Assembly: GCA_016203765.1 (NCBI GenBank)
Contig: JACQMB010000091.1
Span: 1 to 39,066 of the forward strand
Origin: Deltaproteobacteria bacterium
GTDB lineage: Bacteria; UBA10199; SPLOWO2-01-44-7
Direction of reading: 5' to 3'
Length of the DNA stretch: 39,066 nucleotides
The translations under genes and the position numbers were made by a program. Under the pieces are notes generated by a model. It worked only from the letters and a program-made list of their open reading frames with translations, searched no databases and was not told where the DNA came from. This document shows, in pieces, positions 5,198-31,657 of the stretch. Positions within the stretch are counted from its first letter, which is position 1, and every line of letters begins with the position of its first letter.

Positions 5198-5824
5198 CTA
5201 TTCGGTCCCCGACCCCTGGTCCGTAGTCCGTGGTCCGTAGTCCGTAGTCCCTCTTCTCAAATATTCCCCCACATCCTCCTGTGTCGCCCCCTCCGCCCTT
5301 TGCAACGCGCGGAGATAATGAATCGCCGCCCATCGTTTTTCGGCATTGATTTGCGAGGCATAGGAGGGCATCAAGTTTTGTCCTTCAGTAACGACGTGAA
5401 AAATCCTCCCATCGGGCCAGTTCCGCACCTTCTCGGAATGGAGCGACGGCGGTCTGGGAAAGGGCGGGACCACGGAGCCATTCCCGTCCCCCTTTTCACC
5501 ATGGCAGACAATGCAATGGGTTTTATAAACTTTTTCCCCCGCCAGCATTGCCTCTTTCGTCATCGGCAGGGGATTTTTCAACTCCCTCCCGGCCGCCTCG
5601 GGGTCTTCCTTATAAGGATAGGGCTGGTAGCCACGCGGAATCGTCCCCGGGACCGGCAGAAAGGCGCTACGACGGTGCGGCAGGCTTTTGTCGTATTCAT
5701 AGGCCTTCAACGCCGGCTGGTCCATCATGTCGGACATGTATTCCCAGGCCGGTTTTGATTTCGAGCACCCGCCCAGCAGGGCGATGGCCGCCGCCAGGCC
5801 GCTATTCCACCATTTTAATTTCAT
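5198..5824 (-). CDS. actE: Alternative complex III monoheme cytochrome c lipoprotein ActE
   Basis: Lipobox LLGGC, DMMDQP, PVPGTIPRG, CIVCH, MPSYA; C-terminal tail encoded by a heptamer array. Confidence 0.92.
   Translation of the reverse strand: MKLKWWNSGLAAAIALLGGCSKSKPAWEYMSDMMDQPALKAYEYDKSLPHRRSAFLPVPGTIPRGYQPYPYKEDPEAAGRELKNPLPMTKEAMLAGEKVYKTHCIVCHGEKGDGNGSVVPPFPRPPSLHSEKVRNWPDGRIFHVVTEGQNLMPSYASQINAEKRWAAIHYLRALQRAEGATQEDVGEYLRRGTTDYGPRTTDQGSGTE
5214..5251. repeat. Heptamer array (CCGTAGT/CCGTGGT, five units) in the actE 3' end
   Basis: Read directly; encodes GTTDYGPRTTDQG. Confidence 0.9.
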
Positions 5825-7745: not shown

Positions 7746-10673
7746 TCATTTATTCCTCACTTTGGTCAAATAAGTAATCGCCGGTCCCACATTTAAATCC
7801 TCCAGAACGTGATAGCCGCGCGGGCCTTTCTTTAACTGTGACACTTTGGATTCCGGATCGTTCATGTCGCCAAAAACGATCGCGTCGGCCGGACAGCTCT
7901 GCTGACAGGCCGTCTTGATTTCCCCATCCCTCACCTTCCTGCCAAAATCCTTGGCCTTGTCCTTCCCCTCCTGAATCCGCTGGACGCAAAAAGTGCATTT
8001 TTCCATCACCCCTTTTTCGCGCACGGTCACGTCGGGATTGAGGACCATGGCCAGGGGGCTCTTCTCCTTCCAGAGATATTCAAACCAATTAAACCGCCTC
8101 ACCTTGTAGGGACAATTGTTCGAACAATACCGAGTGCCGACACAGCGGTTGTAGACTTGGACGTTCAACCCCTCTTCGTTATGAAGCGTGGCCAGCGTGG
8201 GACAGACCGTCTCGCACGGGGCGTTTTCGCAATGCTGGCAGAGCATCGGCTGGGAGGTGACGTCGGGATTGTTTTCATCGCCCGAATAGTAACGGTCAAT
8301 CCGAATCCAATGCATCTCGCGGCCCTGCTTGACCCTCTCTTCCCCGACCACGGGAATGTTGTTTTCAGCCTGACAGGCAATCATGCAGGCACTGCAACCG
8401 GTGCAAGCGTTCAGATCGATCGCCATCCCCCAGCGGTGCCCTTCATATTTATGTCCGGACCACATGCTGGGGAGAGGGATTACCTCCTCGTTGCCGGCCT
8501 TCGGATTTTTTTGATACTCGGCAAAAGTCGTCTCCTTAATAATCGGCCGTCCATAAACCTGAAAATGCTGTTGGGTGGTGGGGAGTTTCATCCACTGGCC
8601 GGTTTTTTCGATTGTGACCGGCAAAACGGGGGCGGCAAAGGCAAAGGCGTTGGCGCCGAGGTTGTTGCCTACCTGCCCCGCCGCCGTCCGGCCGAAACCC
8701 AAAGGCACGGCGGCCACATCCTCATGCAAGCCGGGTTGAATATAAATGGGAAGTTCGACGGTCGTCCCGTCGTCGGTTTTGAGTTTAACAATATCCCCCT
8801 CTTTCAATTTTTCGGCCTTGGCCTTTTCGGGGGCAAGGGCCACGTAATTTCGCCAGGTCATCTTGGTGACCGGGTCGGGGAGCTCCTTGAGCCAGCCGTT
8901 GTTGGCCGACCGGCCGTCGTAGGCGGGGAGGGTGGGGTAAGTGACCAAGAGGGGACCAGGGACCAGGGACCAGGGACCAGGGACCTTAAGAGTTGGCAAA
9001 ATATTTGTATTAAATTTCCGAAGAGAATATGTGTTTGCCGATCTTCTGGAATCAAAAATGCCATCGCGCAAAACCGTTTCCCAGAAGGTTTGAAAGGAGG
9101 AGGTTAAACCAAATTTCTTGTAAATATTTTCATTCCAATAATTTTTCAAATATTCGTACCATAGTTGTTGGTCCCTGGTCCCTGGTCCCTGGTCCCTGGT
9201 CCATTTCAATAAGCTCTCCTGAAATGCCCTGGTGTTAAACAACGGAGCCACCGCCGGCTGGCGCAGGCTGAGGAGCCCTTCAATCGGTTCGGCGTCCCCC
9301 CAGTTTTCCAGATAATGATGGTCCGGCAGAACCCAGCCGGCCTTCAAGGCGGTCTCATCGACTCGGTCGGCAAAGCTGAGGGTGTGAGGAACTTTGGCCG
9401 CCGCCTCTTCAAAACCGGCGCCCTTGGGAAGCGTGTAGGCCGGATTCGCCTTGTATATCAAAAGACAATCCACGCGCCCCTCTTTCATTTCCCGAATCAA
9501 ATTTTTCAAATCGCTCGTAGCGCGGTTGTTTTGGTGCGAGGGGGTTCCAAACTCAATCGTTTCTCCCTCATTTTCAAAAAGATGATTTAAATGATTGGCC
9601 GCGACGTGCAAGGCTACACCAATTTCCCCTTTCAGGGAATATCCCCCTCCCAGGATCAGCGATTCGCCGCGATGTTTTTGAAGGTCCGCGGCCAGACGGC
9701 GCAGGATGGAAAGGTCAATCCCCGTTTCGGCGGCCGCTTTTTCCATCGGGTATTCCCCCGCCAGTCCCAGCGCGATCTTGATTTCATTGCCGGGCCGAAC
9801 CGGAATATGCAGATCGGCGTTGGAGCCGGTCACGGTGGGATAACTTTCAAAAACAACCAGACGGTTCATCATCCCATCGTGCAGATTGCGGCGCTGAGAA
9901 AATTGTTTGGTAAATTCCACCGGCGAAAGCCAGGTGCCCAAAAAATCGGCTCCAAAAGAAACGATCAACTTGGCCTTGTCGAAACGGTAATGGGGAATGA
10001 AGGCCTCGCCATAGCTTAAACGATTCGCCTCGCGCAATTCTTCCAAAGCAAGGGGTTCATAAACGATCTGCCTGGCATTGGGAAATTGGCTTAAAAATTC
10101 GTCGATCACTTTTTGGGTGGCTGGGCTTTCGATATGGCCGGTCAGAAGGCGAAGAGCGCCGCTCTTTTCTTTTACCTCTTTTAAAATGGCCGCCATCGAT
10201 TGATCCACTTCCTCCCAGGAGACGGCTTCCCAGGATGGACTACGGACTACGGACCGCGCCGTGCCCTGAGCTTGTCGAAGGGGACTACGGACCGGTCCCC
10301 GCAGGCGGTCAGGATCGTAAAGATTCAACAGCGAAGCCTGCCCGCGGGCGCACAATCCGCCCTGATTCATCGGGTGATCGGGGTTTCCCTCCAGCTTGAT
10401 GGGACGACCCTCCCGGACCTTGGCCAGCATCCCGCAAGCGGCGGGGCACTCCCCGCAGGTGGTGGCGTACCAGTTGGCCACACCCGGTGTTACCTCTTCC
10501 GGTTTGTTCAGATAGGGAACGATTTTTTCCACGGGGCGGCGGGCGCACCCGGCCGCCGAGGCCATCGCCAACGCCGCCCCCATCAACTTAAGGAATTCCC
10601 GGCGATCGACCCCTTCGGGACGTTCATCCTGCCCCTGCTCAAACTCCGGATGTTTCCAGTGCTTTTCACTCAT
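7746..10673 (-). CDS. actB: Alternative complex III subunit ActB (molybdopterin-oxidoreductase-like domain fused to a 4Fe-4S domain)
   Basis: Tat signal DRREFLK; REGRPIKLEGNPDHP; CTGCSACMIAC, CQHCENAPCETVCP, CVGTRYCSNNCP, KCTFC...CQQSCP. Confidence 0.96.
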   Translation of the reverse strand: MSEKHWKHPEFEQGQDERPEGVDRREFLKLMGAALAMASAAGCARRPVEKIVPYLNKPEEVTPGVANWYATTCGECPAACGMLAKVREGRPIKLEGNPDHPMNQGGLCARGQASLLNLYDPDRLRGPVRSPLRQAQGTARSVVRSPSWEAVSWEEVDQSMAAILKEVKEKSGALRLLTGHIESPATQKVIDEFLSQFPNARQIVYEPLALEELREANRLSYGEAFIPHYRFDKAKLIVSFGADFLGTWLSPVEFTKQFSQRRNLHDGMMNRLVVFESYPTVTGSNADLHIPVRPGNEIKIALGLAGEYPMEKAAAETGIDLSILRRLAADLQKHRGESLILGGGYSLKGEIGVALHVAANHLNHLFENEGETIEFGTPSHQNNRATSDLKNLIREMKEGRVDCLLIYKANPAYTLPKGAGFEEAAAKVPHTLSFADRVDETALKAGWVLPDHHYLENWGDAEPIEGLLSLRQPAVAPLFNTRAFQESLLKWTRDQGPGTRDQQLWYEYLKNYWNENIYKKFGLTSSFQTFWETVLRDGIFDSRRSANTYSLRKFNTNILPTLKVPGPWSLVPGPLLVTYPTLPAYDGRSANNGWLKELPDPVTKMTWRNYVALAPEKAKAEKLKEGDIVKLKTDDGTTVELPIYIQPGLHEDVAAVPLGFGRTAAGQVGNNLGANAFAFAAPVLPVTIEKTGQWMKLPTTQQHFQVYGRPIIKETTFAEYQKNPKAGNEEVIPLPSMWSGHKYEGHRWGMAIDLNACTGCSACMIACQAENNIPVVGEERVKQGREMHWIRIDRYYSGDENNPDVTSQPMLCQHCENAPCETVCPTLATLHNEEGLNVQVYNRCVGTRYCSNNCPYKVRRFNWFEYLWKEKSPLAMVLNPDVTVREKGVMEKCTFCVQRIQEGKDKAKDFGRKVRDGEIKTACQQSCPADAIVFGDMNDPESKVSQLKKGPRGYHVLEDLNVGPAITYLTKVRNK
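8952..8986. repeat. Heptamer array GGGACCA x5 inside actB
   Basis: Read directly; encodes KVPGPWSLVPGP. Confidence 0.95.
9169..9203. repeat. Heptamer array TGGTCCC x5 inside actB, inverted relative to 8952-8986
   Basis: Read directly; encodes WTRDQGPGTRDQ. Confidence 0.95.
10237..10295. repeat. GGACTAC heptamers interrupted by the REP-like motif CCCTGAGCTTGTCGAAGGG, inside actB
   Basis: Read directly; encodes VRSPLRQAQGTARSVVRSP. Confidence 0.8.
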
Positions 10674-11337: not shown

Positions 11338-11556
11338 CTACCCGGCCATTCTGGAAGCGGTGATTGGAAGTGAAACGGTTTCGAGGCGGGTCAAATCCAA
11401 TTTGGATTTGGCATGATCAATATCAATGCCGACCACATTGCCGGATTTATCAAAATCAACAAGTAGCCCTTGGGCAATCTCGCGTGTTTCCACGCTTTTT
11501 TTGGGGCTTAACTCAATATAAAGGGAATCGGTGTCACGATAATAGTTGAGTTTCAT
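11338..11556 (-). CDS. DUF2283 family small protein (putative antitoxin)
   Basis: MKLNYYRDTDSLYIEL...LLVDFDKSGNVVGIDI pattern; start moved to ATG 11556. Confidence 0.85.
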   Translation of the reverse strand: MKLNYYRDTDSLYIELSPKKSVETREIAQGLLVDFDKSGNVVGIDIDHAKSKLDLTRLETVSLPITASRMAG

Positions 11557-11797
11557 GAGATCTTTTGAATTTATGGACGGCAGGATAGCCGATACGAAAA
11601 ACACGGAACAACCTGTTCGGAAAGGCCTTCATAGCCTTCAGCGCCACCTTCAGCTCATCCCTGCCAATAAAATATTTTCCCGAATCAGGTTCAATCGCAA
11701 TAATCCTCCCCTTATATTTTGGGATAAGATGCCGCAACAGCCTCCGGTAAACTCTTTCCCCCTTACTGCTCAACCTTTTAAGCTTCTTCTCGACCAT
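11534..11797 (-). CDS. Small basic protein, DUF5678-like
   Basis: KYKGRIIAIEPDSGKYFIG...A..A...FP...RIG pattern; low GC; own putative promoter. Confidence 0.65.
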   Translation of the reverse strand: MVEKKLKRLSSKGERVYRRLLRHLIPKYKGRIIAIEPDSGKYFIGRDELKVALKAMKAFPNRLFRVFRIGYPAVHKFKRSHETQLLS

Positions 11798-11987: not shown

Positions 11988-12320
11988 CTATGGAATTGCC
12001 AGAAAGGAGGCGTCCGAATCGTCTAAAAAAAAACGGATTTCTTCTTGGTAACTACGAATGATTGCTTCGAGGTCTTTTGTTTTAACATTGCCTGTTCTTA
12101 ACCAAATCACTTTTGGCGGAAATCCAAAAAGAAAACTCCGCTGATGAAAATCGGAGTCCTTAGAAACAATGACGTAACCATGAGACTTCGCAAATTCCCA
12201 AACAACCTCATCCTCCGCCTGTTTCAGGCCGTGATCCCTAACGTGTGATGCGCCGGGAAATAAACCCGAGAGACTTTGAACCAAGCGGGGGGAGATGTTT
12301 TGATCCAAAAGGAATTTCAC
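11988..12320 (-). CDS. DUF5615 PIN-like (VapC45-like) toxin
   Basis: MKFLLDQNISP, D..VWEFA, IVSKDSDF, PPKVIWLRTGN. Confidence 0.9.
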   Translation of the reverse strand: MKFLLDQNISPRLVQSLSGLFPGASHVRDHGLKQAEDEVVWEFAKSHGYVIVSKDSDFHQRSFLFGFPPKVIWLRTGNVKTKDLEAIIRSYQEEIRFFLDDSDASFLAIP

Positions 12321-12541
12321 CTGGACAAAGTCTGGAGTCTTCGCTCTCGATCTGCAGCGAACGTCAAGCAGGCTTTAATATCTTCCAGGGTCAAATCAGG
12401 AAAATCTTTAAGGATTTCCTCAACCGTCATTCCGGAGGCTAAATAATCCAACACCTCATAAACGGTGATACGCAAGCCGCGGATACAGGGTTTGCCCCCT
12501 CTTTTGCCAGGCTCGATGGTGATGTGCTTTTGATAATCCAT
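12317..12541 (-). CDS. DUF433 family antitoxin
   Basis: ITIEPGKRGGKPCIRGLRITV...GMTVEEILKDFPDLTLEDIKACL; 4-nt overlap with the PIN gene; start moved to ATG 12541. Confidence 0.92.
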   Translation of the reverse strand: MDYQKHITIEPGKRGGKPCIRGLRITVYEVLDYLASGMTVEEILKDFPDLTLEDIKACLTFAADRERRLQTLSR

Positions 12542-12582: not shown

Positions 12583-15500
12583 TCACTGAATCCGCAACAC
12601 CGCCTCCGGTCCTTGGGCCAGGGGGGAGCTCTTCAGGGCGGCGAGGATTTTTGTGGCCCCCGTCCCCCACGCCTTCGTGACGGCGTATCTTCCGCCGCCC
12701 AAATCGCTGATCCGGAGCTTGGCGTAGTTCCGGGCTTGATTTTTCTCTCCCACCGCCAGCGGCGAGGGGTTGACAAGACTTCCGTCGGCGTGCACTTGCA
12801 TCTGCCAGATGATTTCGGAGGGTCTTTGGCCTTTCTCTTCGGCCACGGTTTGAAACATCGCCTCAATGTCGCTCGGCTCCATTGTGGAAAGATCGTCTGT
12901 GCGCAAAGCCCTCAAACCGATCCAGCCGTCGGCGCGGATGGTCAAAACCTCCTTCAGCCCCTCCGCTCTTCTCAAACCCTCCACCACATTTTTGGCCCCC
13001 GTCCCCCGTGCTTTCGTGACGGCGTATCTCCCGCCGCCCAAATCGCTGATCCGGAGCTTGGCGTAGCCGTAGCCCTTATTTTCCTCCCCCACCGCCAACG
13101 GCGAGGGGTTGACAAGACTTCCGTCGGCTTGCACCAGCGTCTGCCAGATGATCTCGGAGGGTCTTTGGCCTTTCTCTTCGGCCGCGGCTTGAAACATCGC
13201 CTCGATGTCGCCCGTCTCCATTGTGGAGAGATCGTCTTTATGCAAAGCCCTCAAACCGATCCAGCCGTCACTGCGGATGGTCAAAACCTCCTTCAGTCCC
13301 TCCGATCTTCTCAAACCCTCCACCACATTTCTGGCCCTCGTCCCCCGCGCCTTCGTGACGGCGTATCTTCCGCCTCCCAAATCGCTGATCTGGATTTTGG
13401 CGTAGTTTGTGGATTGATTTTCCTCCCCCACCGCCAGCGACGAGGGGTTGCTAAGACTTCCGTCGGCTTGCACCAGCGTCTGCCAGATGATCTCGGAGGG
13501 TCTTTGGCCTTTCTCTTTGGCCACGGCTTGAAACATCGCCTCGATGTCGCCCGTCTCCATTGTGAAAAGATCGTCTTTGCGCAAAGCCCTCAAACCGATC
13601 CAGCCGTCACTGCGGATGGTCAAAACCTCCTTCAGCCCCTCCGCTCTTCTCAAACCCTCCACCACATTTTTGGCCCCCGTCCCCCGTGCTTTCGTGACGG
13701 CGTATCTCCCGCCGCCCAAATCGCCGATCCGGAGCTTGGCGTAGTCCCGGGATTGATTTTCTTCCCCCACCGCCAGCGGCGAGGGGTTGCTAAGACTTCC
13801 GTCGGCTTGCACTCGCGTCTGCCAGATGATCTCGGAGGGTCTTTGGCCTTTTTCCCCGGCCACCAGATCAAAAAGAGTCTCCAAATCGGCCGGAGCGGTC
13901 TGGTCCAACGCATCCAGACGCCCTGGCCTGAAATAGTCACCCAAAATGCGCCTCCCCAGATGACGCTCCACATATTTTTTGCCAACCAGATTCCCCAAAG
14001 CCTTAAAGAAATTTCTCCGGACCCCCGGATTTTCGGGGGAAACCCCCTCTTCCAAATAGCGCCTCAAGGTTTCAGTCTTAATGCCGGAAACGGCTCCCAA
14101 CATCCCTCCGTATCTCCGAATCACCATGTAGCGAGCCGCCTTGAGAAGGGCCTGTTCATTGTCGGGAAGATGTTGCGGCATCGGATGCCGCGTCTCGTAA
14201 TAGCGAAGACGATCCAGCGCCCAGGCGTGCAAAAGAAAACCGGACTCTCTTGAATCCAGCCCCAGGGCCTCCGCCAGTCTCTCCACCGTCAGTCTCGCGT
14301 TGGGGACAAACCGCCCGGCCAGAAGGTCTTCCGACAACTCCTGCGAATATCCCAAACCAAACGCGATCGCGCCGGCATTGGGAACGGGGGACAATTGCCT
14401 CAAATAACGCCCCAAATTTTCCCCCGCCGCCTCCCCAAACAGGTCAATCGTTAATACATCGGTATCCTTTAATACCTCCCTCCCGCCGCGGGGGCCTGCG
14501 GGACGAGCGGATTTCAAAGGAGATCCCCTTTTAATCTCGCCGGCCTCCAAAATATAAACGCTCGGATCAAAGGCGGTCAGGCCCGGATGACGAAAAAACA
14601 TCCCGGCCAAATCGACAAACAGGGGGGCGCTTTGGGCCCCCAGATGCGCCCCCACCGACTGGAGGGCGTAGCGCAAGCCCCCGGCTCGCTCCACCCCGGC
14701 AAAAATCACCGCGGCTAGGGGGTCGCTTTGAAACTCGTCCACCCCTTCCACCAGCGCTTCCACGTGGATCACAATCGGGCGGACCCCCAAGACAAAATCG
14801 CGCCAGTCCAGATCCCGCCTCGCCTCGATTTCGGGATCGCCCGATATCACCAGGGCCGCCCGGTCCCGATAACGCCCCTCGGCTTGCAAACGGGCGGCCA
14901 AGGCCATGGCTTCCTCACGGCTCCCGGCGTAGACCGCCATCCTCGGTATTTTTTCCTCCCGGCTCAGTTCTCTATCCAGCTGAACGATGGTTTCTTCTAA
15001 ATGCTCCACCCTCTCGACCAAACCCAACTCCCCCCACGCCTCATGCACCGGCTTGTCCGTCGCCAAAGGTTTGGGCAGATAGACCCTTGTCTCCGGTTTG
15101 ATCACCAGTCCCTGTTTGAGAAGGGAGGGAAGGTCCTCCGAAAAAATCAGCCCCTTGGCCCCGCCGTAAATGCCGGCCGCCCCTTCCGCGACCGACTCGG
15201 TCAGGCCCAACAAAAATTGCCCCTCGACCTTTTGAATCTGAAAATCGGGACTCAAAAATCCCCCCTCCACCAGGACGCGAATGAACCGGCTCCGGTCTTT
15301 GTCCTCCGGGTCATCCTCGATCGGACGAACATGATGCTCCTTGTCCAAGATCACCACTCCCGCCCTGGCAAGCGCCCCGCGCAAGTCCGGCCCCTCCATC
15401 CGGCTCAACTCATGAATCGAGGCCAGGCGGATTTTAATCCCGTCCCTCTCGAAAATCGCTTGTTCTTTGTCTTGAATCGTTTCGCCCGTCAGACGGGAAA

Positions 15501-16059
15501 GACGCCCCTGCCATCTTTTGAAATTCTCTTTGCCCTGCACGATCAGCACCGTCTCTTTTTCAACCAGCGCCTGCTGGACCGGCCCCGAGTGGGGCCTTCG
15601 CAACAGCCTCTCCAAAAAGGCCTCGGTTAAATCCCGCAACCCCAAAGGAGAGACAATCAAGCCCCGGTCGCTCACTCCCTGTTCCAAATGATCGATCAAA
15701 CGCTCCAGAGACTCATCCAAAAAACGCGAGTAGCGGCGGGAGGGAATTTCTCCCAAACGATGGAGAGAAATTTTCGCAACCGCTTCCCGCCAGGGGTCCT
15801 GGGGCACGGCGCGTATTCTGGCGGCGAACTCCCGTTGAATCTCTTCCCGGTCGGTTCCCGTGGCGGCGCGCCAGCCGCGGACCAAATCCTTCAACTCGGC
15901 GCGGAGCCCCTCATCCACCCCCGCAAAGGCGTCCGGAAGCAGGGCCGCGTCGCCGGGCAAAAAATCGGCCCCCTCGATCACACCGGCCGCCAACGACGCC
16001 CCCCCATAGACCGAAGGCCCCACTCCCAAAAATAACGCTGATGACGCAAAGATGCTCAT
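12583..16059 (-). CDS. Large hypothetical protein: degenerate SF2 (ResIII/RadD-like) helicase fold, two XRE-like HTH segments, C-terminal 113-aa repeats
   Basis: Eroded motifs in helicase order: GLIVSPLGLRDLT, VILDKEHH, LLGLTES, AVYAGSREEA, VEALVEGVD, LQSVGAHL; QRPSEIIWQ occurs four times. Confidence 0.8.
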   Translation of the reverse strand: MSIFASSALFLGVGPSVYGGASLAAGVIEGADFLPGDAALLPDAFAGVDEGLRAELKDLVRGWRAATGTDREEIQREFAARIRAVPQDPWREAVAKISLHRLGEIPSRRYSRFLDESLERLIDHLEQGVSDRGLIVSPLGLRDLTEAFLERLLRRPHSGPVQQALVEKETVLIVQGKENFKRWQGRLSRLTGETIQDKEQAIFERDGIKIRLASIHELSRMEGPDLRGALARAGVVILDKEHHVRPIEDDPEDKDRSRFIRVLVEGGFLSPDFQIQKVEGQFLLGLTESVAEGAAGIYGGAKGLIFSEDLPSLLKQGLVIKPETRVYLPKPLATDKPVHEAWGELGLVERVEHLEETIVQLDRELSREEKIPRMAVYAGSREEAMALAARLQAEGRYRDRAALVISGDPEIEARRDLDWRDFVLGVRPIVIHVEALVEGVDEFQSDPLAAVIFAGVERAGGLRYALQSVGAHLGAQSAPLFVDLAGMFFRHPGLTAFDPSVYILEAGEIKRGSPLKSARPAGPRGGREVLKDTDVLTIDLFGEAAGENLGRYLRQLSPVPNAGAIAFGLGYSQELSEDLLAGRFVPNARLTVERLAEALGLDSRESGFLLHAWALDRLRYYETRHPMPQHLPDNEQALLKAARYMVIRRYGGMLGAVSGIKTETLRRYLEEGVSPENPGVRRNFFKALGNLVGKKYVERHLGRRILGDYFRPGRLDALDQTAPADLETLFDLVAGEKGQRPSEIIWQTRVQADGSLSNPSPLAVGEENQSRDYAKLRIGDLGGGRYAVTKARGTGAKNVVEGLRRAEGLKEVLTIRSDGWIGLRALRKDDLFTMETGDIEAMFQAVAKEKGQRPSEIIWQTLVQADGSLSNPSSLAVGEENQSTNYAKIQISDLGGGRYAVTKARGTRARNVVEGLRRSEGLKEVLTIRSDGWIGLRALHKDDLSTMETGDIEAMFQAAAEEKGQRPSEIIWQTLVQADGSLVNPSPLAVGEENKGYGYAKLRISDLGGGRYAVTKARGTGAKNVVEGLRRAEGLKEVLTIRADGWIGLRALRTDDLSTMEPSDIEAMFQTVAEEKGQRPSEIIWQMQVHADGSLVNPSPLAVGEKNQARNYAKLRISDLGGGRYAVTKAWGTGATKILAALKSSPLAQGPEAVLRIQ
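12640..13915. repeat. 339-bp tandem repeat, about 3.7 copies
   Basis: CTGCCAGATGAT recurs every 339 bp (about 12802, 13141, 13480, 13819); shadow ORFs repeat at 12866/13205/13544. Confidence 0.97.
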
Positions 16060-16158: not shown

Positions 16159-17966
<1,808 letters not shown>

Positions 17967-17970
<4 letters not shown>

Positions 17971-18884
17971 CCCAAAAAAAGGAGCTGGCCGAAAAAACCG
18001 TCATTACCGAGGTGGGGAGGGTTAAGGAGGTGGGTGAAAAGAATGCCTATATCCTTTTCCTTTCGGGCCCGCTGGTGGGCAAACTGCTGGAACTCAAGGC
18101 GGGAGAAACCATTTTGGGCCGCTCCCCCGATGCCGCCATCTCCGTCAACGATTCGCGCGTCTCCCGCCAGCATATCTCCCTGACCGTCAGCAAAGCGGGC
18201 ACCACTCTTACGGATTTGGGTTCCACCAACGGCACCTTTGTCAACGGCGGCCGCGTTCAAACCCACCTCCTGCAGGACGGCGACAAGGTGCAGATATCCT
18301 CTTCCACCATTTTCAAGTTTGCCTATCAGGACAATCTGGAAAACATCTTTCACAAGGAGCTCTACAAAATGGCGGTGATCGACGCGGTCACCGGCGTCTT
18401 CAACAAGCGCTATTTTTCCGACCGCCTCAAAGAAGAATTCGCCCACTCCAAGCGGGCCAGAGTGCCCCTGGCCCTGATCATGATGGACCTCGATCATTTC
18501 AAAAAGGTCAACGACACCCACGGCCACCTCGCCGGCGATTTTGCCCTGGCCCATATCGCCAAGACCGTGCAAAAGATGGTCCGGGCCTCCGATGTCTTCG
18601 CCCGCTACGGCGGGGAGGAGTTTATCATCTTGCTGAGGAACACCGATGAAAAGGGAGCCTCGCAGTTGGCCGAACGGATTCGCCTGGCCGTCGAACAATC
18701 ACCGGCCACCTTCGAGTCCCATACCATTCCGGTGACCGTTAGCCTGGGGGTGGCTTCTTTAGGTGAAGAGAATTACGGTTCGCCGGAGGTTTTTATCGAA
18801 GCGGCCGATCAATATCTCTATCAGTCCAAACAGGGAGGGCGTAACCGCGTGATTTCCGGGCATTATAAATCCGCTTCCTCATGA
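17967..18884 (+). CDS. FHA-GGDEF diguanylate cyclase (DgcB-like architecture)
   Basis: FHA motifs LGR, VSRQH, DLGSTNGT; RASD I-site and RYGGEEF; ATGA overlaps on both sides. Confidence 0.95.
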
Positions 18885-21085
18885 AAACGCTTTGGGAAAT
18901 GGTGAAAAGCCTGACGCGGCTGGTGACGGTCCTGGGGGCGGTCTCGGCCGCGGGGCTGGCCGTCGGTTTTTGCCTCCTCTTTGGAACCTATCTTTATTTC
19001 TCTCACGATCTTCCCAAAATCCAAACGGTGGCCGACTACCATCCGCAGGTTGTCTCCACCGTTTATGGATCGGATGGAACCAAGATCGGTGAATTTTGGA
19101 AAGATGAACGGCGCGAGCTGGCCGAAGTGACCGAGATCCCCCCCCTTTTGATCAGCGCCTTCGTGGCCGCCGAGGATTCCCGCTTTTTTGAACACCGCGG
19201 GGTCGATTTCAAGGGGGCCCTGCGGGCCTTTGCGGCCAACTTGAAGGCCGGCTCCATCGTCCAGGGGGGTTCCACCATCACCCAGCAAGTGACCCGCTCC
19301 CTCCTCCTCACCCGCCAGCGAACCTACGTCCGTAAAATTAGGGAGGCGATCCTCGCCACCCGTCTGGAGCGTTATCTCTCCAAGGATCAGATCCTTTATT
19401 TATATTTGAATCAAATTTACTTCGGCAACCGGGCCTACGGCGTGAAAGCGGCCGCCGAAAACTATTTTCGCAAAGAGCTCAAGGCCTTGAACCTGGCCGA
19501 GATGGCCCTGCTGGCCGCCTTTCCCCGCGCCCCCGAAAACTATTCCCCTTTCAAACATCCCAAAAAGGCCAAGGCGCGGCAGCGGTATGTCTTAGATCGC
19601 CTCCTGCAGGAAGGGATTATCCGTGAAGAGGAAATGGAAGAGGCCTTGAAGACCGAGCTGGATCTCCATCAGCGGGGTACCGACAAGGAGAGCAATCGGG
19701 AGACGGCCCCCTATTTTACCGAATATCTCAGACCGATCCTTTTGGAAAAATACGGGGAGGAAAAACTCTATTACGGGGGCCTGAAAATTTACACGCCGAT
19801 CGATCCGGTTTTGCAAAAGGCGGCCCAGAACGCCCTGCGCCAGGGGCTGGAGGAAGTCAACCGGCGCTACCGGCGGGACGTAAAAATTCAGGGGGCCCTT
19901 TATGCCCAGGAAATCCCCACTGGTTTCGTCAAGACCATGGTGGGAGGTTATGACTTTCAGACCAGCGAATTCAATCGGGCGATGAGCGCCCTGCGACAGC
20001 CGGGGAGCGCCTTCAAACCCTTTGTCTATGCCGCCGCCCTCGACAAGGGCTATCGTCTGCCCAGCCCGATCGCCGACACCCCTTTTGCCATTCCGGTGGG
20101 AGACAAGGTTTGGGCCCCCAAAAACTATGATGGCCGATACCGGGGGATCACCACCGTCCACAACGCCCTGGTCCATTCCTACAACGTGGCCACCGCCCGG
20201 ATCGGCTACCATATCCGCCTCCCTTATTTAACCGCCTACATCCGTAAAATGGGGATCACCACGCCGATCAATCCGTTCCCTTCGATGTCACTGGGGGCCA
20301 ACGGGGTTCATCTTTATGAAATGGTCGCCTCCTACGCCATTTTTCCGAGCCTCGGGGTTTATCATCCGCCGGTTTTTATCCTAAAGGTTGAGGACCTGAA
20401 GGGGAATGTGTTGGAGGAATATAAGCCGCCTCTCGTGCCGGAGGCGGGGAATGGAAACAATGAGGAGGAACTCAACAAGATTTTATTCGAAACCAATCAA
20501 AAATGGATCAAAACCGACGGGCTCGACCTGTATCCCAGTGAACTAAAAGTTTTGTATGGCGGCAATATCCCGCCGGGGCGGGTGATGACCCCCCAGACCG
20601 CCTATCTGATGTTGAAACTGATGTCCGATGTCGTGCAGATGGGAACCGGCCAAAGGGTCAAGGCATTGAATCGCCCGGTGGCCGGCAAGACCGGAACCTC
20701 CAACGAGTCGACCGACGTCTGGTTTATCGGCTACACCCCCCAACTGGCCGCCGGCGTCTGGGTCGGCTACGACGACAACCGTCCCATCGGCAAAGGGGAA
20801 CAAGGTGGCCATACCGCGGCACCCATTTTTTTGGAATTTATGAAGGCCGCCGCCGAAGGAACGGAGCCTTTGGAATTTGCCATGCCCGAGGAGGTCAAGG
20901 GTAAAGATCTGTTGGCATTAACGGGAGGCTCGGCCAAATTTGCCGAATATGTCCCCATGGAGGCCTTGGGTTTGATTGAGGGAGGCACCAGCCAAGACCG
21001 GGCGGCCGATTTTTTGGAGATGGATATGGAAGGCCCCCCCAAAACAGAATCCCCTTCCGAAGAGACACAAGATGAACTATACTAA
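18881..21085 (+). CDS. Class A penicillin-binding protein (PBP1A family)
   Basis: EDSRFFEHRGVD, QGGSTITQQ, RKIRE; SAFK, SYN, KTGT. Confidence 0.95.
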   Translation: MKTLWEMVKSLTRLVTVLGAVSAAGLAVGFCLLFGTYLYFSHDLPKIQTVADYHPQVVSTVYGSDGTKIGEFWKDERRELAEVTEIPPLLISAFVAAEDSRFFEHRGVDFKGALRAFAANLKAGSIVQGGSTITQQVTRSLLLTRQRTYVRKIREAILATRLERYLSKDQILYLYLNQIYFGNRAYGVKAAAENYFRKELKALNLAEMALLAAFPRAPENYSPFKHPKKAKARQRYVLDRLLQEGIIREEEMEEALKTELDLHQRGTDKESNRETAPYFTEYLRPILLEKYGEEKLYYGGLKIYTPIDPVLQKAAQNALRQGLEEVNRRYRRDVKIQGALYAQEIPTGFVKTMVGGYDFQTSEFNRAMSALRQPGSAFKPFVYAAALDKGYRLPSPIADTPFAIPVGDKVWAPKNYDGRYRGITTVHNALVHSYNVATARIGYHIRLPYLTAYIRKMGITTPINPFPSMSLGANGVHLYEMVASYAIFPSLGVYHPPVFILKVEDLKGNVLEEYKPPLVPEAGNGNNEEELNKILFETNQKWIKTDGLDLYPSELKVLYGGNIPPGRVMTPQTAYLMLKLMSDVVQMGTGQRVKALNRPVAGKTGTSNESTDVWFIGYTPQLAAGVWVGYDDNRPIGKGEQGGHTAAPIFLEFMKAAAEGTEPLEFAMPEEVKGKDLLALTGGSAKFAEYVPMEALGLIEGGTSQDRAADFLEMDMEGPPKTESPSEETQDELY

Positions 21086-21275
21086 TGCCATGCCGAATCA
21101 TCCGCGAAGCCCACAACTTCCCTACCGGCAAAAGAACCCGCAGAAAGGCTGGCAACCTCCACAAAACCAGAAAAGCCCGCCTCAAAACCGGCGGGAATCG
21201 CGTCTCCCCCGGAATTCAAGCAAACACCGCAAAAGTTTTGGGCATGTTTAACAACAACTGCCGGATACTTATTGG

Positions 21276-21890
21276 CTACTCCACCGCCACGACCACATCT
21301 TCAATGCGGTCACCGCGCTCGATCTGTTTGGTCACCTCCATCCCCTCAACGGTCTGGCCGAAGACGGTGTATTCGCCGTCCAGGGAGGGCTGGGGCGCAA
21401 GGGTGATGTAGAATTGGGAGCCGCTCGATTCCTTTTTGGGGTTGAGAGGCTTGCCGGCCGGGTCGGTATCGGGAAGCCGGGCCCAGGCCAAGGCACCCTC
21501 CGTGTGGGAACGCTTGATTTCAGGCGCCAGGGTATAACCGGGCCCTCCCCGGCCCGTTCCGGTCGGATCGCCTCCCTGGATCACAAAATCGGGGACCACC
21601 CGGTGAAAAATCAAACCTTTGTAGAATCCCTTCTGGGCCAGCTCTACAAAATTGGTGACCGACAAAGGGGCCTCCTTTGGATAAAGTTCAACTTTAATGT
21701 TTCCCTTGTTTGTCTTTATAATTGCTGAATATTTTTTATTAGAATCCACATTGACCTCCTGCGGCGCCGACCAGGATGTCGCCGCCTCTTTCGGCTGGGG
21801 ACCTTCATCCCCCTTTTTGGTTTCCTGATCGCGGCTACAATGGATTAAAAGGAGTGGAACAATTAAGACAAAACCGAAAATCTTTCTCAT
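21276..21890 (-). CDS. Cyclophilin-type peptidyl-prolyl isomerase, probable lipoprotein
   Basis: FYKGLIFHRVVPDFVIQGGDPTGTGRGGPGY, SGSQFYI, LDGEYTVFG. Confidence 0.95.
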   Translation of the reverse strand: MRKIFGFVLIVPLLLIHCSRDQETKKGDEGPQPKEAATSWSAPQEVNVDSNKKYSAIIKTNKGNIKVELYPKEAPLSVTNFVELAQKGFYKGLIFHRVVPDFVIQGGDPTGTGRGGPGYTLAPEIKRSHTEGALAWARLPDTDPAGKPLNPKKESSGSQFYITLAPQPSLDGEYTVFGQTVEGMEVTKQIERGDRIEDVVVAVE

Positions 21891-21923
21891 ACTGGCTCCT
21901 TCGGATAATTTTGATTATGTAAA

Positions 21924-22457
21924 CTATTTGTAAAGTTTATGTTTTACAATATACACAATGACCGATTTTGGCAACAATTCTTCCAGCCTCCCCCCCCTCT
22001 CCAGCGACTCGCGCACCGCGGTGGCGCTGACATCCGGAACGGGAGAAGCAGGCCCCCTGGGAACGACGATCCGTTCCGCTTCCCGTTTCAACGCTTCTGC
22101 CCGGTTCCAGGTGTCGATCTCGGCGGCGGCGTCCGCCCCCACTATCAAATAAAACCGTTGGGCGGGGTTTTCTTTTTTTAAGCGAACAACGGTTCGATAG
22201 GTAAAACTTTTGCCCCCCATTTTTTTTTCGATGTCCAGGACACGGACTTTCGGTTCTAACCCCTGAAAGGCCAGGAGGCACATCCGGAAACGGTGCGCAA
22301 ACGCCGCCAGCGGTTTGGCAAAGGGATGCTCGTCGCAGGGAATCACCCAGACCTGATCGACCTTCCCCTCGTTCAGCACCCATTCGGCCATCCCGACATG
22401 CCCCGAGTGGGGAGGATTGAACGACCCGCCCAGCAGGCCCACTCGTTCAGAAGACAC
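21924..22457 (-). CDS. nadD: Nicotinate-nucleotide adenylyltransferase
   Basis: GGSFNPPHSGH, SFT, LIVGAD, VSATAVR. Confidence 0.92.
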   Translation of the reverse strand: MSSERVGLLGGSFNPPHSGHVGMAEWVLNEGKVDQVWVIPCDEHPFAKPLAAFAHRFRMCLLAFQGLEPKVRVLDIEKKMGGKSFTYRTVVRLKKENPAQRFYLIVGADAAAEIDTWNRAEALKREAERIVVPRGPASPVPDVSATAVRESLERGGRLEELLPKSVIVYIVKHKLYK

Positions 22458-22501
22458 TTGACCTCCCTTTGAAGTTTTATGAATATAACGGGCCTGAACC
22501 G

Positions 22502-23293
22502 ATGAAGCAAGTCATTGTTGTCACCAAACTGAAGCACAAAGACCTGCGGAAGGCCACCCGGCATATCCACAACCAAACCTTGCAAGCCGTTAAAGAATTT
22601 CTCAACGGCTTGCGGATCCGATACCGCGTTGTCGATCGAAGCCGCCTTCAGTGCCCCTTGAAGACCGATCTGATCGTTACCGTGGGGGGGGACGGAACCG
22701 CCCTGGCCGCTTCCCATTTTGCCGGGAGCTCTCCCCTCTTTTGCATCAATTCCGCTCCCTCCACCTCGACCGGTTTTTTTTGCCGGGCCTCGTCAAGAAA
22801 TTTTCGCCCCCGCCTCCAAAAGATTTTAGAGGGAAAGATAAGCCCCCAAAAACTTCCAAGGCTCGCCGTTTATCTGCAAGGGAGGAAATTAGGACCTTAC
22901 GGGTTGAACGAGGTCCTGTTCGCCTCCAAATTGCAGGGTGAGACGGCCCGTTATACCCTCCGGGTCGGCCGCCACGGCGAGTATCACAAAAGTTCGGGGG
23001 TTTGGGTGGCCACCGGGGCCGGTTCCACCGCGGCGATTCATTCGGCCGGCGGCAAACAGGATTCCCCGCGCAGCGGGCGACTGCAATATAAGGTGCGCGA
23101 GCCGTGCCGCTTTCCCAAAAGCCGTTACCGCCTGCTCTCCGGTTTTGTCCAGGCGCGCGGGGCGATAAAAATCATCTCCGGAATGGACCAGGGGATGGTC
23201 TTTATCGACGGCGGCAAATGGCGCTATCCGGTGCCGCACCAAGCCGTCCTCACGGTGCGTGGCAACGTCGCCCCATTAAAGATTTTCTTGTAG
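22502..23293 (+). CDS. NAD(+)/NADH kinase
   Basis: VGGDGT, LNE, SSGVWVATGAGSTA..SAGG; ATG 22502 preferred. Confidence 0.88.
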   Translation: MKQVIVVTKLKHKDLRKATRHIHNQTLQAVKEFLNGLRIRYRVVDRSRLQCPLKTDLIVTVGGDGTALAASHFAGSSPLFCINSAPSTSTGFFCRASSRNFRPRLQKILEGKISPQKLPRLAVYLQGRKLGPYGLNEVLFASKLQGETARYTLRVGRHGEYHKSSGVWVATGAGSTAAIHSAGGKQDSPRSGRLQYKVREPCRFPKSRYRLLSGFVQARGAIKIISGMDQGMVFIDGGKWRYPVPHQAVLTVRGNVAPLKIFL

Positions 23294-24334
23294 ATCTTCG
23301 GGTGACCCAGCCGGTTCGGCTAGGGCGGGGGCCGGGGCCACCTCCAGATGGGAAATCCTGTCTTCCAGACGGCCCAGCCGTTTTTCCGATTTGCCGAAAC
23401 TCGATACGGCGTTGTTCAGGTGACGGCCCAGGGTGCCGAAATCGTCCTGAAACCGGCCCAGCTCCTGACGGATCCGACCCATCTCGGTTAAAATTTCCTT
23501 GACCCGTTTTTGCACCTGCATCCCCTGTAACCCCAAAAGAATGGTCTGAAGATAGGCAAAAAAGGTGTTGGGGGAGACGGGGATCACCTTTCGCTTCAGG
23601 GCGTGATTCATCAGGGAGTGATTTTCTCCGGCCGAAATGTCCTTGGTGATGATTTCATAGTAGACGTTCTCCGCGGGGATATACATGAGGGCGAACTCAA
23701 ACGTCCCCTCCCCCGGCTGGATATATTTGTCGGCGATATCATCGATATGTTTCTTCACCCCGGCCAGAAAGATTTTACGCAAGGAAGCCTTTTCCTCCTC
23801 GCCCTTGGCCTCCACCAGGCGGCGAAAGTGTTCCAGGGGAAACTTCGCATCGATCGGCACCAGCCGCTCGGCGGTCCGAATCACCGCGTCGACCCGCTCC
23901 CCGTTGCCGAAGGTATGTTGCAGGATAAAATAGTCCTGCGGCAGCATTTGCGAGAGGAGATCCCCCAGCAGTTGTTCGCTGAAGTTGCCGCGCAGTTTGG
24001 GGGCCCGCAGAATCTGCTGGAGCTCCGCGATATCCTTCCCCAGGCCCAAGACCTGTTTGGTGGTCTCCTCCATCCGGACGATTTTGGATTCCATCCCCCC
24101 GAAAAATTTGGAGGCATTGTCGAGACGATGGCCGATCCCCTCCTGGGATTTTTGCAAAAGGGCCGCCTGGCCTTGGGCCTGGGAGCGAAGCTCCGTTCTC
24201 AAGCCATCCAACTGTTGCTGGAGGAGCAAGAAAGGGGACTCCCCCGCCGGAGTGCGCCGCCGCCAATACCAGACCAGCACTCCCCCGGCAAAAAACAAGA
24301 CAACGGCCGCCAGCACCAAACCCCAAGAGTCCAT
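23276..24334 (-). CDS. rmuC: DNA recombination protein RmuC
   Basis: N-terminal TM and coiled coil; PKLRGNFSE, VDAVI, PIDAKFP, FALMYIPAE, VSPNT. Confidence 0.93.
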   Translation of the reverse strand: MDSWGLVLAAVVLFFAGGVLVWYWRRRTPAGESPFLLLQQQLDGLRTELRSQAQGQAALLQKSQEGIGHRLDNASKFFGGMESKIVRMEETTKQVLGLGKDIAELQQILRAPKLRGNFSEQLLGDLLSQMLPQDYFILQHTFGNGERVDAVIRTAERLVPIDAKFPLEHFRRLVEAKGEEEKASLRKIFLAGVKKHIDDIADKYIQPGEGTFEFALMYIPAENVYYEIITKDISAGENHSLMNHALKRKVIPVSPNTFFAYLQTILLGLQGMQVQKRVKEILTEMGRIRQELGRFQDDFGTLGRHLNNAVSSFGKSEKRLGRLEDRISHLEVAPAPALAEPAGSPEDLQENL

Positions 24335-24396
24335 CCGCGTCCCAATAGCAGGATTTCATTGACAGATCAAGGTATTACGCTTATTTTTATAAGGCG

Positions 24397-25314
24397 ATGG
24401 CCAAAGAGACCAAATCAGAGGTCCCCGAGGTGGAAATCCCTTTAAACAAAGGACTGCTGGATGAGGCCTCCAAGTTCAAGGAAGAACGCCAACTGCTGAA
24501 GGAACGGCTGGCCAAGATTGAGGCCGGCCGCAGTCAAGTCACGAAAAATGTCTTTGAAAAAGTCTACGGCGATTATGCCGACCGCCTGCAAAAAATCACC
24601 GACCGGTTGATGGAAAAAAAACAGGATATTGACCGGGAGCTGGGCACCCTGTATGAAACGCGCGATAAAATCCAAGCCGGCCTCAAAAATCATAAGGAAG
24701 TTTTGGAAGAGTTGAAATTCCGCCAGCAGCTGGGGGAGTTCGGGCGGGAGGATTTTCAATCCAAATCCAGGGAGCAGGAAGACAAAATCGAGCGGTTTGA
24801 AAAGGTCTTATCCGGGATATTATCAAACATCCGGCGTTACGAGGCCCTCTTTGAGGGCCAGGAAGATCTCCTCGATGAAGCCCCTCTGGTGTCCCGCGGC
24901 GAGGCAGGCGACGTTTGGGAAGCGGAGGCGGCCGAGGAAGGGGCGGCCTTGAGCCGCGGCGAAGGGCCGATTGGCAAGGGGGAGGGAGGAACCGGCTGGG
25001 AAGAGGCAACCAAGCCCAATCTTCAGGCGGTCTCCCAGATTACCATTCTCTCCGGCACCGATAATGTCGGCAAAAGTTTTCCCGTCAACGACACCGTTTC
25101 GATCGGGCGCTCCCACACCAACAAGGTCATCCTGAAAGACTCGAAAGTCTCCAGACAGCATGCCGAGATTAAGATGCGGGGGAGTGAGTGTATCTTAATT
25201 GACCTGAACAGTTCCAACGGAACCATGGTCAATGGCCAGAAGATCCACGAACACATCCTGAGTCCCAACGACGAAATCCAAATCGGGGACACTCTTTTGC
25301 AATACCGGCAATAG
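24397..25314 (+). CDS. Coiled-coil protein with C-terminal FHA domain
   Basis: SIGR, VSRQHA, DLNSSNGT, DEIQIG. Confidence 0.9.
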   Translation: MAKETKSEVPEVEIPLNKGLLDEASKFKEERQLLKERLAKIEAGRSQVTKNVFEKVYGDYADRLQKITDRLMEKKQDIDRELGTLYETRDKIQAGLKNHKEVLEELKFRQQLGEFGREDFQSKSREQEDKIERFEKVLSGILSNIRRYEALFEGQEDLLDEAPLVSRGEAGDVWEAEAAEEGAALSRGEGPIGKGEGGTGWEEATKPNLQAVSQITILSGTDNVGKSFPVNDTVSIGRSHTNKVILKDSKVSRQHAEIKMRGSECILIDLNSSNGTMVNGQKIHEHILSPNDEIQIGDTLLQYRQ

Positions 25315-30971: not shown

Positions 30972-31657
30972 CCCTTTATCAAAGAACAAATGGCTTTAAA
31001 AACTTTTTCGGGCGGCCGGTTCCCATCCACTTTTTGCAACAGGCCCTGCTTTTGATAAAAAGGAATCAGCGGGGTGGTCTGTTGTTGATAAACTCTCCAG
31101 CGTTCCCGCACGGTCTCTTCCCTGTCATCCGGCCGTTGCATCAGCGCCCCGCCGCACTTGTCACAAAGACCCTCCTTCCGGGGGGGGTGAAACTTTAGAT
31201 GATGGGCCGCCCCGCAATGACTGCATTGACGCCGGCCGGTGTTGCGCGCCATCGCCTCCTCTTGCGAAATTGCGACGGCCAAAACGGAATCGAGTTTTAG
31301 TTTCTTTTCCTCCAACCATTGTTTGAGCCCTTCCGCCTGGCCGACGGTGCGGGGAAAACCGTCCAGGATGAAACCGGATTCACAATCTTTTTGTTCCATT
31401 CGTTCGGCCATCAGGGCAATGGTGATTTCATCCGGGACCAAATGTCCGGCATCCAAAATCCCCTTCACCTTTCTCCCCAGCGGCGTCTCTTTGCGAATGG
31501 CCTGACGAAAAAGATCCCCGGTGGTCAGACGGGGAATATTAAAATGTTTAGCCAGCCTTTCCGCCTGCGTCCCCTTCCCCGCCCCCGGCGGTCCAATCAG
31601 TACCAACCGAAGGGATTTGGGTCCGTAGTCCGTAGTCCGTAGTCCGTGGTCCGTCAC
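30968..31657 (-). CDS. adk: Adenylate kinase (Zn-lid type) with repeat-derived N-terminal extension
   Basis: GPPGAGKGT, LDGFPRT, CSHC...CDKC; GTG 31657 overlaps the secY TAG. Confidence 0.95.
   Translation of the reverse strand: MTDHGLRTTDYGPKSLRLVLIGPPGAGKGTQAERLAKHFNIPRLTTGDLFRQAIRKETPLGRKVKGILDAGHLVPDEITIALMAERMEQKDCESGFILDGFPRTVGQAEGLKQWLEEKKLKLDSVLAVAISQEEAMARNTGRRQCSHCGAAHHLKFHPPRKEGLCDKCGGALMQRPDDREETVRERWRVYQQQTTPLIPFYQKQGLLQKVDGNRPPEKVFKAICSLIKG
31621..31655. repeat. Heptamer array GTCCGTA x5 at the adk 5' end
   Basis: Read directly; encodes TDHGLRTTDYG. Confidence 0.92.

Follow-up and report, generated by a model that had tools for sequence, protein, structure and literature searches.

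Does a four-residue segment that differs in every copy of a tandem repeat mark the recognition surface of a modular binding protein, or is it a loop that drifts without setting any specificity? This question is raised by gene P0001, located in a stretch of 39,066 nucleotides (nt) from a bacterium labeled Deltaproteobacteria (contig JACQMB010000091.1 of assembly GCA_016203765.1). We refer to this whole stretch as the window, and positions are those of the window unless another locus is named. A first-pass annotation had described near-identical repeats of 113 amino acids (aa) with a hypervariable patch in P0001, and had proposed that the patch determines specificity by analogy with the repeat-variable di-residues of transcription activator-like effectors (TALEs). 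We find that the C-terminus of P0001 consists of four complete copies of an undescribed alpha/beta domain of ~100 aa, and that the patch is the fastest-changing segment of this domain across its family. Such variation in the loop is suggestive of a modular binding surface, though it falls short of proof.

Four tandem units with one variable patch each

The gene, its repeat units and their patches map as follows.

12583..16059, minus strand: whole gene P0001, 1158 aa, with pseudo-helicase body, helical head and four-unit repeat array (open reading frame [ORF] list and translation)
13594..13932, minus strand: repeat unit 1, aa 710-822; domain by hidden Markov model (HMM) 710-809; first ~15 residues diverged (HMM and modeled secondary structure)
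13255..13593, minus strand: repeat unit 2, aa 823-935; HMM domain 823-922 (HMM and two-unit model, predicted local distance difference test [pLDDT] 93.3)
12916..13254, minus strand: repeat unit 3, aa 936-1048; HMM domain 936-1035 (HMM and two-unit model)
12586..12915, minus strand: repeat unit 4, aa 1049-1158; HMM domain 1049-1148; last helix and strand diverged (HMM)
13744..13755, minus strand: patch of unit 1, QSRD, residues 769-772, beta2-beta3 loop (translation and model)
13405..13416, minus strand: patch of unit 2, QSTN, residues 882-885, beta2-beta3 loop (translation and model)
13066..13077, minus strand: patch of unit 3, KGYG, the outlier, residues 995-998 (translation)
12727..12738, minus strand: patch of unit 4, QARN, residues 1108-1111 (translation)

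The C-terminus of P0001 is made up of four tandem 113-aa periods. Tandem Repeats Finder reported positions 12650-13863 as the sole array inside the P0001 ORF, with a period of 339 nt, 3.6 copies, a score of 1983, 90% matches and 0% indels. An HMM seeded on the four P0001 copies and iterated over relatives placed the natural domain borders at aa 710-807, 823-920, 936-1033 and 1049-1147, each domain of ~100 aa being followed by a linker of ~13 aa. This natural phase differs from that of the first-pass annotation, in which DNA identities between units were measured. Its description of the repeats as near-identical is generous: units 1 to 3 share 86-90% DNA identity, and unit 4, owing to a diverged tail, is only 71-75% identical to the other three over 297 nt. 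The diverged tail of unit 4 resembles the C-termini of relatives, its ending ...SPLAQGP..VLRI recurring in P0002, P0008, P0011, P0013 and P0014. A diverged head of the first domain together with a diverged tail of the last would be the pattern expected of homogenization acting on the interior of the array.

Minus-strand translation at the four patch positions gives exactly QSRD, QSTN, KGYG and QARN, each between N and YAK, and the smaller differences that had been noted alongside them (QTRV/QTLV/QTLV/QMQV and RGTGAK/RGTRAR/RGTGAK/WGTGAT) are likewise present in a codon-by-codon table. Three of the patches share the form Q-S/A-x-D/N, from which KGYG departs radically. The core, a stretch of 219 nt alignable across all four copies, holds 49 variable sites, 9 of which fall within the 12-nt patch. 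Thus, while making up 5.5% of the core, the patch accounts for 35 of 169 pairwise nucleotide differences (21%), and a 12-nt window as dense arose in 1.0% of 100,000 shuffles of the sites (P 0.010). On P0001 alone, the patch is therefore moderately more variable than expected by chance.

A 546-aa open frame also runs antisense across the array (12613-14253, plus strand) and repeats with the same period; it is most simply explained as a by-product of the composition of the repeats rather than as a gene.

The repeat unit is an undescribed domain

AlphaFold modeling of two units from a 17-row alignment reached a mean pLDDT of 93.3 and a predicted template modeling score (pTM) of 0.84. Each unit is composed of a short helix, a long helix, a four-strand meander, a further helix and a short strand, and these elements recur in each of the four units when the whole protein is modeled. 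The patch constitutes the last four residues of a nine-residue loop (unit residues 59-67) between strands 2 and 3. It falls in a 10-residue block with a pLDDT of 96 and hence sits in an ordered loop of a confident model, rather than in the disordered loop considered as one possibility in the first-pass annotation. The loop is flanked by the conserved motifs G-E-E-N and Y-G/A-K, conservation next to the patch being 76% for G in column 56, 60% for E in column 58, 67% for Y in column 64, 61% for G in column 65 and 80% for a basic residue in column 66.

The repeat family had not been recognized from the letters alone, and our searches matched the unit to no known structural repeat. In Pfam, no family recurred among the 17 two-unit rows; the unit profile matched nothing below E 0.1 among PDB sequences, and P0001 itself had no match there. 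The ESM Atlas gave no usable match for the unit, NCBIfam no match, the viral fold library BFVD no match at E <= 1e-3, and PHROGs only matches without any passing stretch. Foldseek against the PDB returned no match at E <= 1e-3, the best rows being gelsolin and villin with a template modeling score of ~0.2 (best E 1.8e-3, score 0.21). Similarly, VIA-align over 48,161 chains found none with Z >= 5. Its best row, of gelsolin/ADF-H type, was 7c2h_G (Z 3.5, 133 residues aligned, root mean square deviation [rmsd] 16.2), and the best single-domain rows had Z 3.3-3.4 with an rmsd of 3.2-3.4 Å over 73-77 residues. Full-text searching of the literature found nothing on this protein family.

The gelsolin/ADF-H fold is the only recurring structural neighbor. 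Both occur as tandem alpha/beta domains of ~100 aa whose sheet packs against a long helix, but the scores are at noise level and there is no sequence similarity. In gelsolin, moreover, the long helix comes midway through the strands, whereas in the P0001 unit it precedes a meander of four strands. Within the reach of these tools, the unit is thus an undescribed domain that at most loosely resembles gelsolin-like alpha/beta domains.

Two other candidates were tried and rejected. The Tpt1/KptA N-terminal domain (PF01885) matched P0001 at E 5.9e-5 with 23.6 bits against a cut-off of 26, but only one of the 17 two-unit rows matched (E 0.16) and no Tpt1 chain appeared in the fold lists. Weak matches of winged-helix type (Forkhead, HTH_40, HATPase_c_4) concerned different parts of the unit and were mutually inconsistent.

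The patch is the fastest-changing segment across the family

A full HMMER pass over 1,835,955,588 representative proteins retrieved 15 proteins at E <= 1e-3. One match, P0016 (E 4.2e-6), was judged spurious by eye, being a 1785-aa low-complexity repeat protein that shares only a DLGGG-Y motif, and was excluded before HMM building. Combining the HMMER pass with a word-indexed search, 15 of the 16 proteins examined carry two to five units each, 50 in total; one further protein in the phylum has eight or nine, so that unit counts range from 2 to 9 across the family. P0001 has five full-length relatives at 31-47% identity. The family was found only in uncultured bacteria labeled Deltaproteobacteria (~15 protein clusters among 1.84 billion), and within the phylum of the window genome in 8 of 93 species genomes, the window's own included. 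Where named at all, its members are annotated as "hypothetical protein," "superfamily II DNA or RNA helicase" or "histidine phosphatase family protein." The C-terminal repeats of P0006 align in register, but with an hhalign E of 0.09 and a probability of 0.6% no homology to the family is established. Searches for related loci found none, either with P0001 over genome contigs or with P0011 over metagenome contigs; P0011, which carries a second homogenized array, was analyzed as a protein only.

Leaving P0001 out, we scored 96 four-column windows over 46 units from 14 proteins. Variation is far from uniform along the unit: the patch has the highest mean entropy of all 96 windows, 3.40 bits as compared with a column mean of 2.46 (standard deviation 0.74). 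With a single unit sampled from each of the 14 proteins (300 draws), the patch had a median rank of 1 and a range of 1-6. In addition, the patch is different in each of the 50 units. For differences within a protein, it ranks first of 96 in the two most homogenized arrays, P0001 (mean pairwise identity 0.74) and, independently, P0011 (0.76). The short hypervariable patch at a fixed position, as originally described for the four P0001 copies, is thus a property of both arrays and of the family as a whole.

Concerted evolution of the units

In a maximum-likelihood tree built from the 50 units, grouping follows the protein of origin for P0001 (support 100/99), P0002 (99/91), P0003 (96/95), P0004 (98/90) and P0011 (100/100). 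Because units cluster by protein in these five cases, concerted evolution or repeated re-expansion is recurrent in the family. In the clade of active helicases (P0013 to P0015), units group by position instead.

Outside the patch, the P0001 core shows a proportion of nonsynonymous differences (pN) of 0.05-0.12 versus one of synonymous differences (pS) of 0.12-0.25, which indicates purifying selection. Patch pN reaches 0.71-0.78 for pairs with unit 3, where core pS is 0.12-0.17. Similarly, in the DNA of P0003, patch pN is 0.93-1.08 for pairs with its own unit 3 versus 0.25-0.39 elsewhere, and ordinary in the other pairs. Such a pattern fits diversification of the loop, or selection against its homogenization; with a small sample and an excess that comes from single outlier patches, it is suggestive only.

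As to the source of the changes, a diversity-generating retroelement appears unlikely because no reverse transcriptase (RVT_1) match was found in the window genome, which is 68% complete, and because the changes in the patch alignment involve all four bases, whereas such elements alter adenine-templated sites only. Tandem Repeats Finder found no repeat besides the tandem array as a template for such an element.

The array is joined to helicase derivatives and other partners

The remainder of P0001, which precedes the array, is divided as follows.

15748..16059, minus strand: N-terminal ~104 aa, residues 1-104, pLDDT <50, not confidently modeled (full-length model)
14521..15747, minus strand: helicase-derived core, aa ~105-513, with degenerate ATPase motifs (collinear alignment; alternating strands and helices in the model)
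13933..14427, minus strand: all-helical head, aa 545-709 (~165 residues), which precedes the array in all architectures checked (helices only in the full-length model)

Of the helicase-like and helix-turn-helix (HTH)-like modules that the first-pass annotation had ascribed to the protein, the former is borne out by collinear homology. P0001 aligns collinearly with P0013 to P0015, which carry the same head and array and exceed the Pfam cut-offs for ResIII and Helicase_C; with P0013, the BLASTP alignment has an E of 2e-43 over residues 105-931, helicase core included. Unlike these superfamily II (SF2) helicases, P0001 lacks the catalytic motif residues and has no Pfam helicase match even at E <= 1. 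In an alignment of P0001 and its closest relatives (A2), PLGL-RD stands at the position of PTGTGKT, DKEH at that of DEAH, TES at that of TATP and LQSVGAHL at that of QIIGRALR, and the residues of Walker A, DExH, motif III and motif VI are replaced in P0001 to P0005 and P0008. Because these catalytic motifs are replaced, the P0001 body, by sequence a helicase derivative, has very probably lost its ATPase activity. Inactive "pseudo-helicase" cassettes are known, an example being the C-terminal cassette of Brr2.

The helical head also precedes the array in P0007, P0014 and the proteins of genomes G001 and G076. Its HTH character comes only from Pfam matches below cut-off (GntR at E 4.7e-5 with 23.4 bits against 27; MerR in two of five members), and the head profile had no match among PDB sequences; we regard it as possibly HTH-like. 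In the N-terminal ~104 aa, no 19-residue window reaches a Kyte-Doolittle mean of 1.6, the maximum being 1.54.

Across the family, head and array are joined to degenerate helicase bodies in P0001 to P0005 and P0008, and to active-type helicases in P0013 to P0015 (ResIII plus Helicase_C; ResIII 87-95 bits) and in genome G021. P0017 combines the array with a histidine phosphatase (His_Phos_1). In P0007, the C-terminus matches sigma-70 region 4 in Pfam below cut-off (E 6.5e-4, 19.6 bits against 24.1), and all 12 PDB matches listed at E <= 1 are sigma region 4 chains, the best at E 0.0019.

Several loci depart from the P0001 arrangement. P0007 (L016, G080:C6, 9193-12426) and the G076 protein (L017, 8782-11076) carry the head and two to four units without any helicase part, followed in P0007 by the C-terminal region with the sigma-70 region 4 signature; both genes, which come from the window's own taxonomic family, sit between acyl-CoA dehydrogenase and ferrochelatase/URO-D genes. 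A split form in G056 (L019, G056:C1, 7864-12627) has the helicase-like part, which is 37% identical to P0001 aa 105-545, as a separate ORF of 407-464 aa; the ORF after it, of 1082 aa, consists almost wholly of eight or nine repeat units. Lastly, G066 has two giant tandem open frames (L023/L024, G066:C5, ~172000-217000) of 8324 aa as reported and at least 6682 aa. The first, a multidomain protein, contains three repeat units between two hydrophobic segments, as well as a stretch that by eye we take to resemble a response-regulator receiver domain.

What the variable loop may be for

The reading we favor, to which we give somewhat less than an even chance, is that the loop lies in a ligand-contact surface and that the array is a multivalent recognition module, with a nucleic acid or some part of the transcription machinery as its likeliest ligand. 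The beta2-beta3 loop, possibly with the neighboring loop between helix 2 and strand 1, would then form the variable part of the contact surface, and each unit would offer a slightly different site. In P0001, the module would be attached to a helicase-derived body without ATPase activity and to a helical head that is possibly HTH-like; its partners in relatives would be active SF2 helicases, sigma-70 region 4 or a histidine phosphatase. It is because of these partner domains that nucleic acids or the transcription machinery appear as the most likely class of ligand.

A number of observations weigh against this proposal. Within P0001, clustering in the patch is borderline when codons are shuffled (5.4% of 100,000 shuffles, P 0.054). 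Among units 1, 2 and 4, patch pN is 0.22-0.27, near the neutral core pS of 0.13-0.25, and the excess in P0001 therefore rests on the single patch KGYG. Family-wide, the runner-up windows follow closely: columns 40-43 in the turn between strands 1 and 2 (3.19 bits) and columns 25-28 at the end of helix 2 (3.14 bits). Going by the modeled strand order, columns 25-28 and the patch should share one end of the sheet. Where the units of an array have diverged further, the rank of the patch for within-protein difference drops to between 5 and 43 of 96. As for the ligand, units are near neutral in net charge (mean +0.8, range -6 to +9), and a conserved acidic motif abuts the patch, giving no nucleic-acid-binding signature. 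The neighborhood is not conserved, and the loci examined have no conserved operon that would explain the function. In addition, contigs from four runs of one study show no listed variant at the patches; since contigs drop rare variants and the study is possibly that of the source sample, this absence says little.

The main rival, which we consider possible if doubtful, holds that the domain is structural or a spacer and that the patch, as the surface loop under least constraint, drifts fastest after each homogenization because any polar residue would do there, and sets no specificity. The make-up of the patch is indeed what one expects of an exposed loop, with S, N, H, D, K and T overrepresented and L, V, I and F scarce, and the loop accommodates insertions and deletions, as in unit 4 of P0002 and unit 1 of P0015. 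Other loops are almost equally variable, and in three of the six P0001 unit pairs patch pN is about equal to core pS, as under neutrality. A recent conversion tract between units 1 and 4 of P0003 points the same way: its nine differences lie in two loops (five in the turn between strands 1 and 2, two within the patch, one adjacent to it and one at codon index 50), seven being nonsynonymous and two synonymous, a ratio of ~1. What drift does not readily account for is P0001 unit 3, which differs at 7-8 of the 12 patch nucleotides against a flanking synonymous level of 0.12-0.17; neutral point mutation since homogenization would not give this. The loop is, moreover, ordered and framed by two better conserved motifs of the domain, and the patch ranks first of 96 in two independent homogenized arrays.

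Going beyond a contact surface, one could envisage a modular recognition device on a new fold, in which four-residue loops would be swappable, recombination between units would shuffle and re-homogenize the scaffold and selection would keep the loops different. With the ATPase-dead helicase as a clamp, such a device could either read a polymer in a programmable way, be it DNA, RNA or a repetitive protein, or be a bacterial counterpart of the non-self sensors of the NOD-like receptor (NLR) type in fungi and plants. We consider this extended version unlikely.

Quite unlikely as well is an immune-like sensor of non-self, built like the fungal HNWD/NLR proteins from an NTPase-derived core and homogenized repeats whose hypervariable surface positions would recognize a changing target such as a phage or competitor protein. 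The WD40 repeats of the HNWD proteins (the STAND proteins HET-E, HET-D and HET-R of Podospora anserina) undergo concerted evolution with diversifying selection on four surface positions, and these variable positions set recognition specificity (PMC2873952). As in P0001, a C-terminal homogenized array with few variable surface positions per unit stands behind an NTPase-type core, so that the evolutionary pattern is as described there. Also in favor, units cluster by protein, the family is patchy (8 of 93 genomes of the phylum), and the P0001, P0003 and P0014 loci have genes for PIN-type or PIN-like toxins next to them. The HNWD units are, however, 42-aa WD40 blades of a beta-propeller and not self-contained 100-aa alpha/beta domains, the P0001 core is a helicase derivative with dead motifs and not a NACHT domain, and the evidence for selection in P0001 is suggestive only. 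Pfam recognizes neither a NACHT or NB-ARC domain nor an effector domain in P0001, whose NTPase motifs are degenerate. P0001 matches none of 5027 PADLOC models, nor do P0007, P0012 and P0017, and P0013 matches only the generic helicase parts of restriction enzymes. The other neighbors are housekeeping genes, and the four runs show no polymorphism at the patches.

Very unlikely, in our view, is a TALE-like code in which the array would wrap a nucleic acid and each patch read one base or short element. The TALE repeats of Xanthomonas are two-helix hairpins of 33-35 aa that form a DNA-wrapping superhelix of tens of units, with repeat-variable di-residues. The likeness lies in tandem units that are nearly identical except for one short hypervariable patch, always in the same place; the fusion partners handle nucleic acids (helicases, sigma region 4), and the pTM of 0.84 for two units suggests a fixed geometry between them. 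In structure, the analogy drawn in the first-pass annotation fails, since the unit is a 113-aa globular alpha/beta domain and not a 34-aa helical hairpin of a solenoid. Also weighing against such a code are the low number of units (2-9 per protein), the near-neutral charge, the conserved acidic motif next to the patch and the lack of any likeness to nucleic-acid-binding folds in PDB searches.

Least probable of all is that the array, or the order of its patches, is a chimera from short-read assembly of a repeat: Logan contigs break at the repeat borders, none crosses the array and shared segments have ~2x depth, yet the pieces specific to units 2 and 3 fit with their patches, none of the four patches has a listed variant, the reading frame is open through all 1158 aa, and arrays of 2-9 units that begin and end in the same way are found in relatives from other samples.

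Assembly support and source samples

The DNA of the window is present in four groundwater metagenome runs of one study; no RNA run is listed among the runs that carry it. Since no Logan contig spans the array in any of the four runs, copy number and order rest on the original assembly. Contigs of three runs cover the patch of unit 2, and one contig that of unit 3, in each case with 0 other letters.

Elsewhere in the gene, the same runs contain a second haplotype around 14146-14204 (11 differences in a 119-nt contig, ~35-60% of local depth by run), and at 12589 some contigs carry the last ~50 nt of the P0001 gene into a different downstream sequence. Because of this second haplotype and the alternative downstream sequence, a related strain or paralogue is present in the groundwater samples.

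Gene neighborhood and the rest of the window

Upstream of P0001, one divergent gene deserves mention as a possible partner.

16159..17970, plus strand: Ser/Thr protein kinase with PEGA domains, divergent, upstream of the P0001 gene (Pkinase E 4.5e-39, plus PEGA)

The orthologue P0003 has a divergent kinase upstream as well, 46% identical over 276 aa, with PIN genes on both sides. No kinase lies beside the gene at the loci of G056, G001, G080, G076, G041 and G021, where the neighbors are housekeeping genes. The kinase is thus a possible functional partner, and a lead for the pseudo-helicase subfamily only. In the window, it is part of a phospho-signaling cluster (16159-25314) that further includes an FHA-GGDEF protein (17967-18884) and a second FHA protein (24397-25314).

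Directly downstream of the repeat gene, in a region covering 11988-12541 and 11338-11604, are a DUF433 gene and a DUF5615/PIN_10 gene, which overlap by 4 nt, with a DUF2283 gene next. The DUF433 gene probably starts at the ATG at 12541, and together with the DUF5615/PIN_10 gene it likely forms a toxin-antitoxin pair.

Tandem heptanucleotide repeats occur at 8952-8985, 9169-9202, 17434-17526, 5219-5250, 31621-31654 and 36351-36451. They include GGGACCA x4.9 and its reverse complement TGGTCCC x4.9, ~180 nt apart, as well as TGGACCG x7.9 and GTCCGTA x4.6 and x4.9. The first three tracts are in frame within otherwise conserved genes, namely a molybdopterin/FeS subunit (7746-10673) and the Ser/Thr kinase (16159-17970), and translate as runs such as GPWSLVPGP or DRGPWTVDRGPWTV. 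These heptamers are reminiscent of the short tandemly repeated repetitive (STRR) heptamers of cyanobacteria.

Implications

Several natural recognition systems are characterized by homogenized repeats in which only a few surface positions vary, and some of these systems have become tools (TALEs, designed repeat binders). While this evolutionary pattern is known, the domain and its pairing with an inactive helicase body are new, as is, within the reach of the fold searches, its fold; here, the pattern occurs on a domain without a Pfam model, a solved relative or a convincing fold neighbor. Even if the loop sets no specificity, the units constitute a new domain family with clear borders and a confident model. 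Should the loop prove to set specificity, the domain would be a new scaffold for modular binding, and would offer a clue to the role of ATPase-dead helicase derivatives in small-genome groundwater bacteria.

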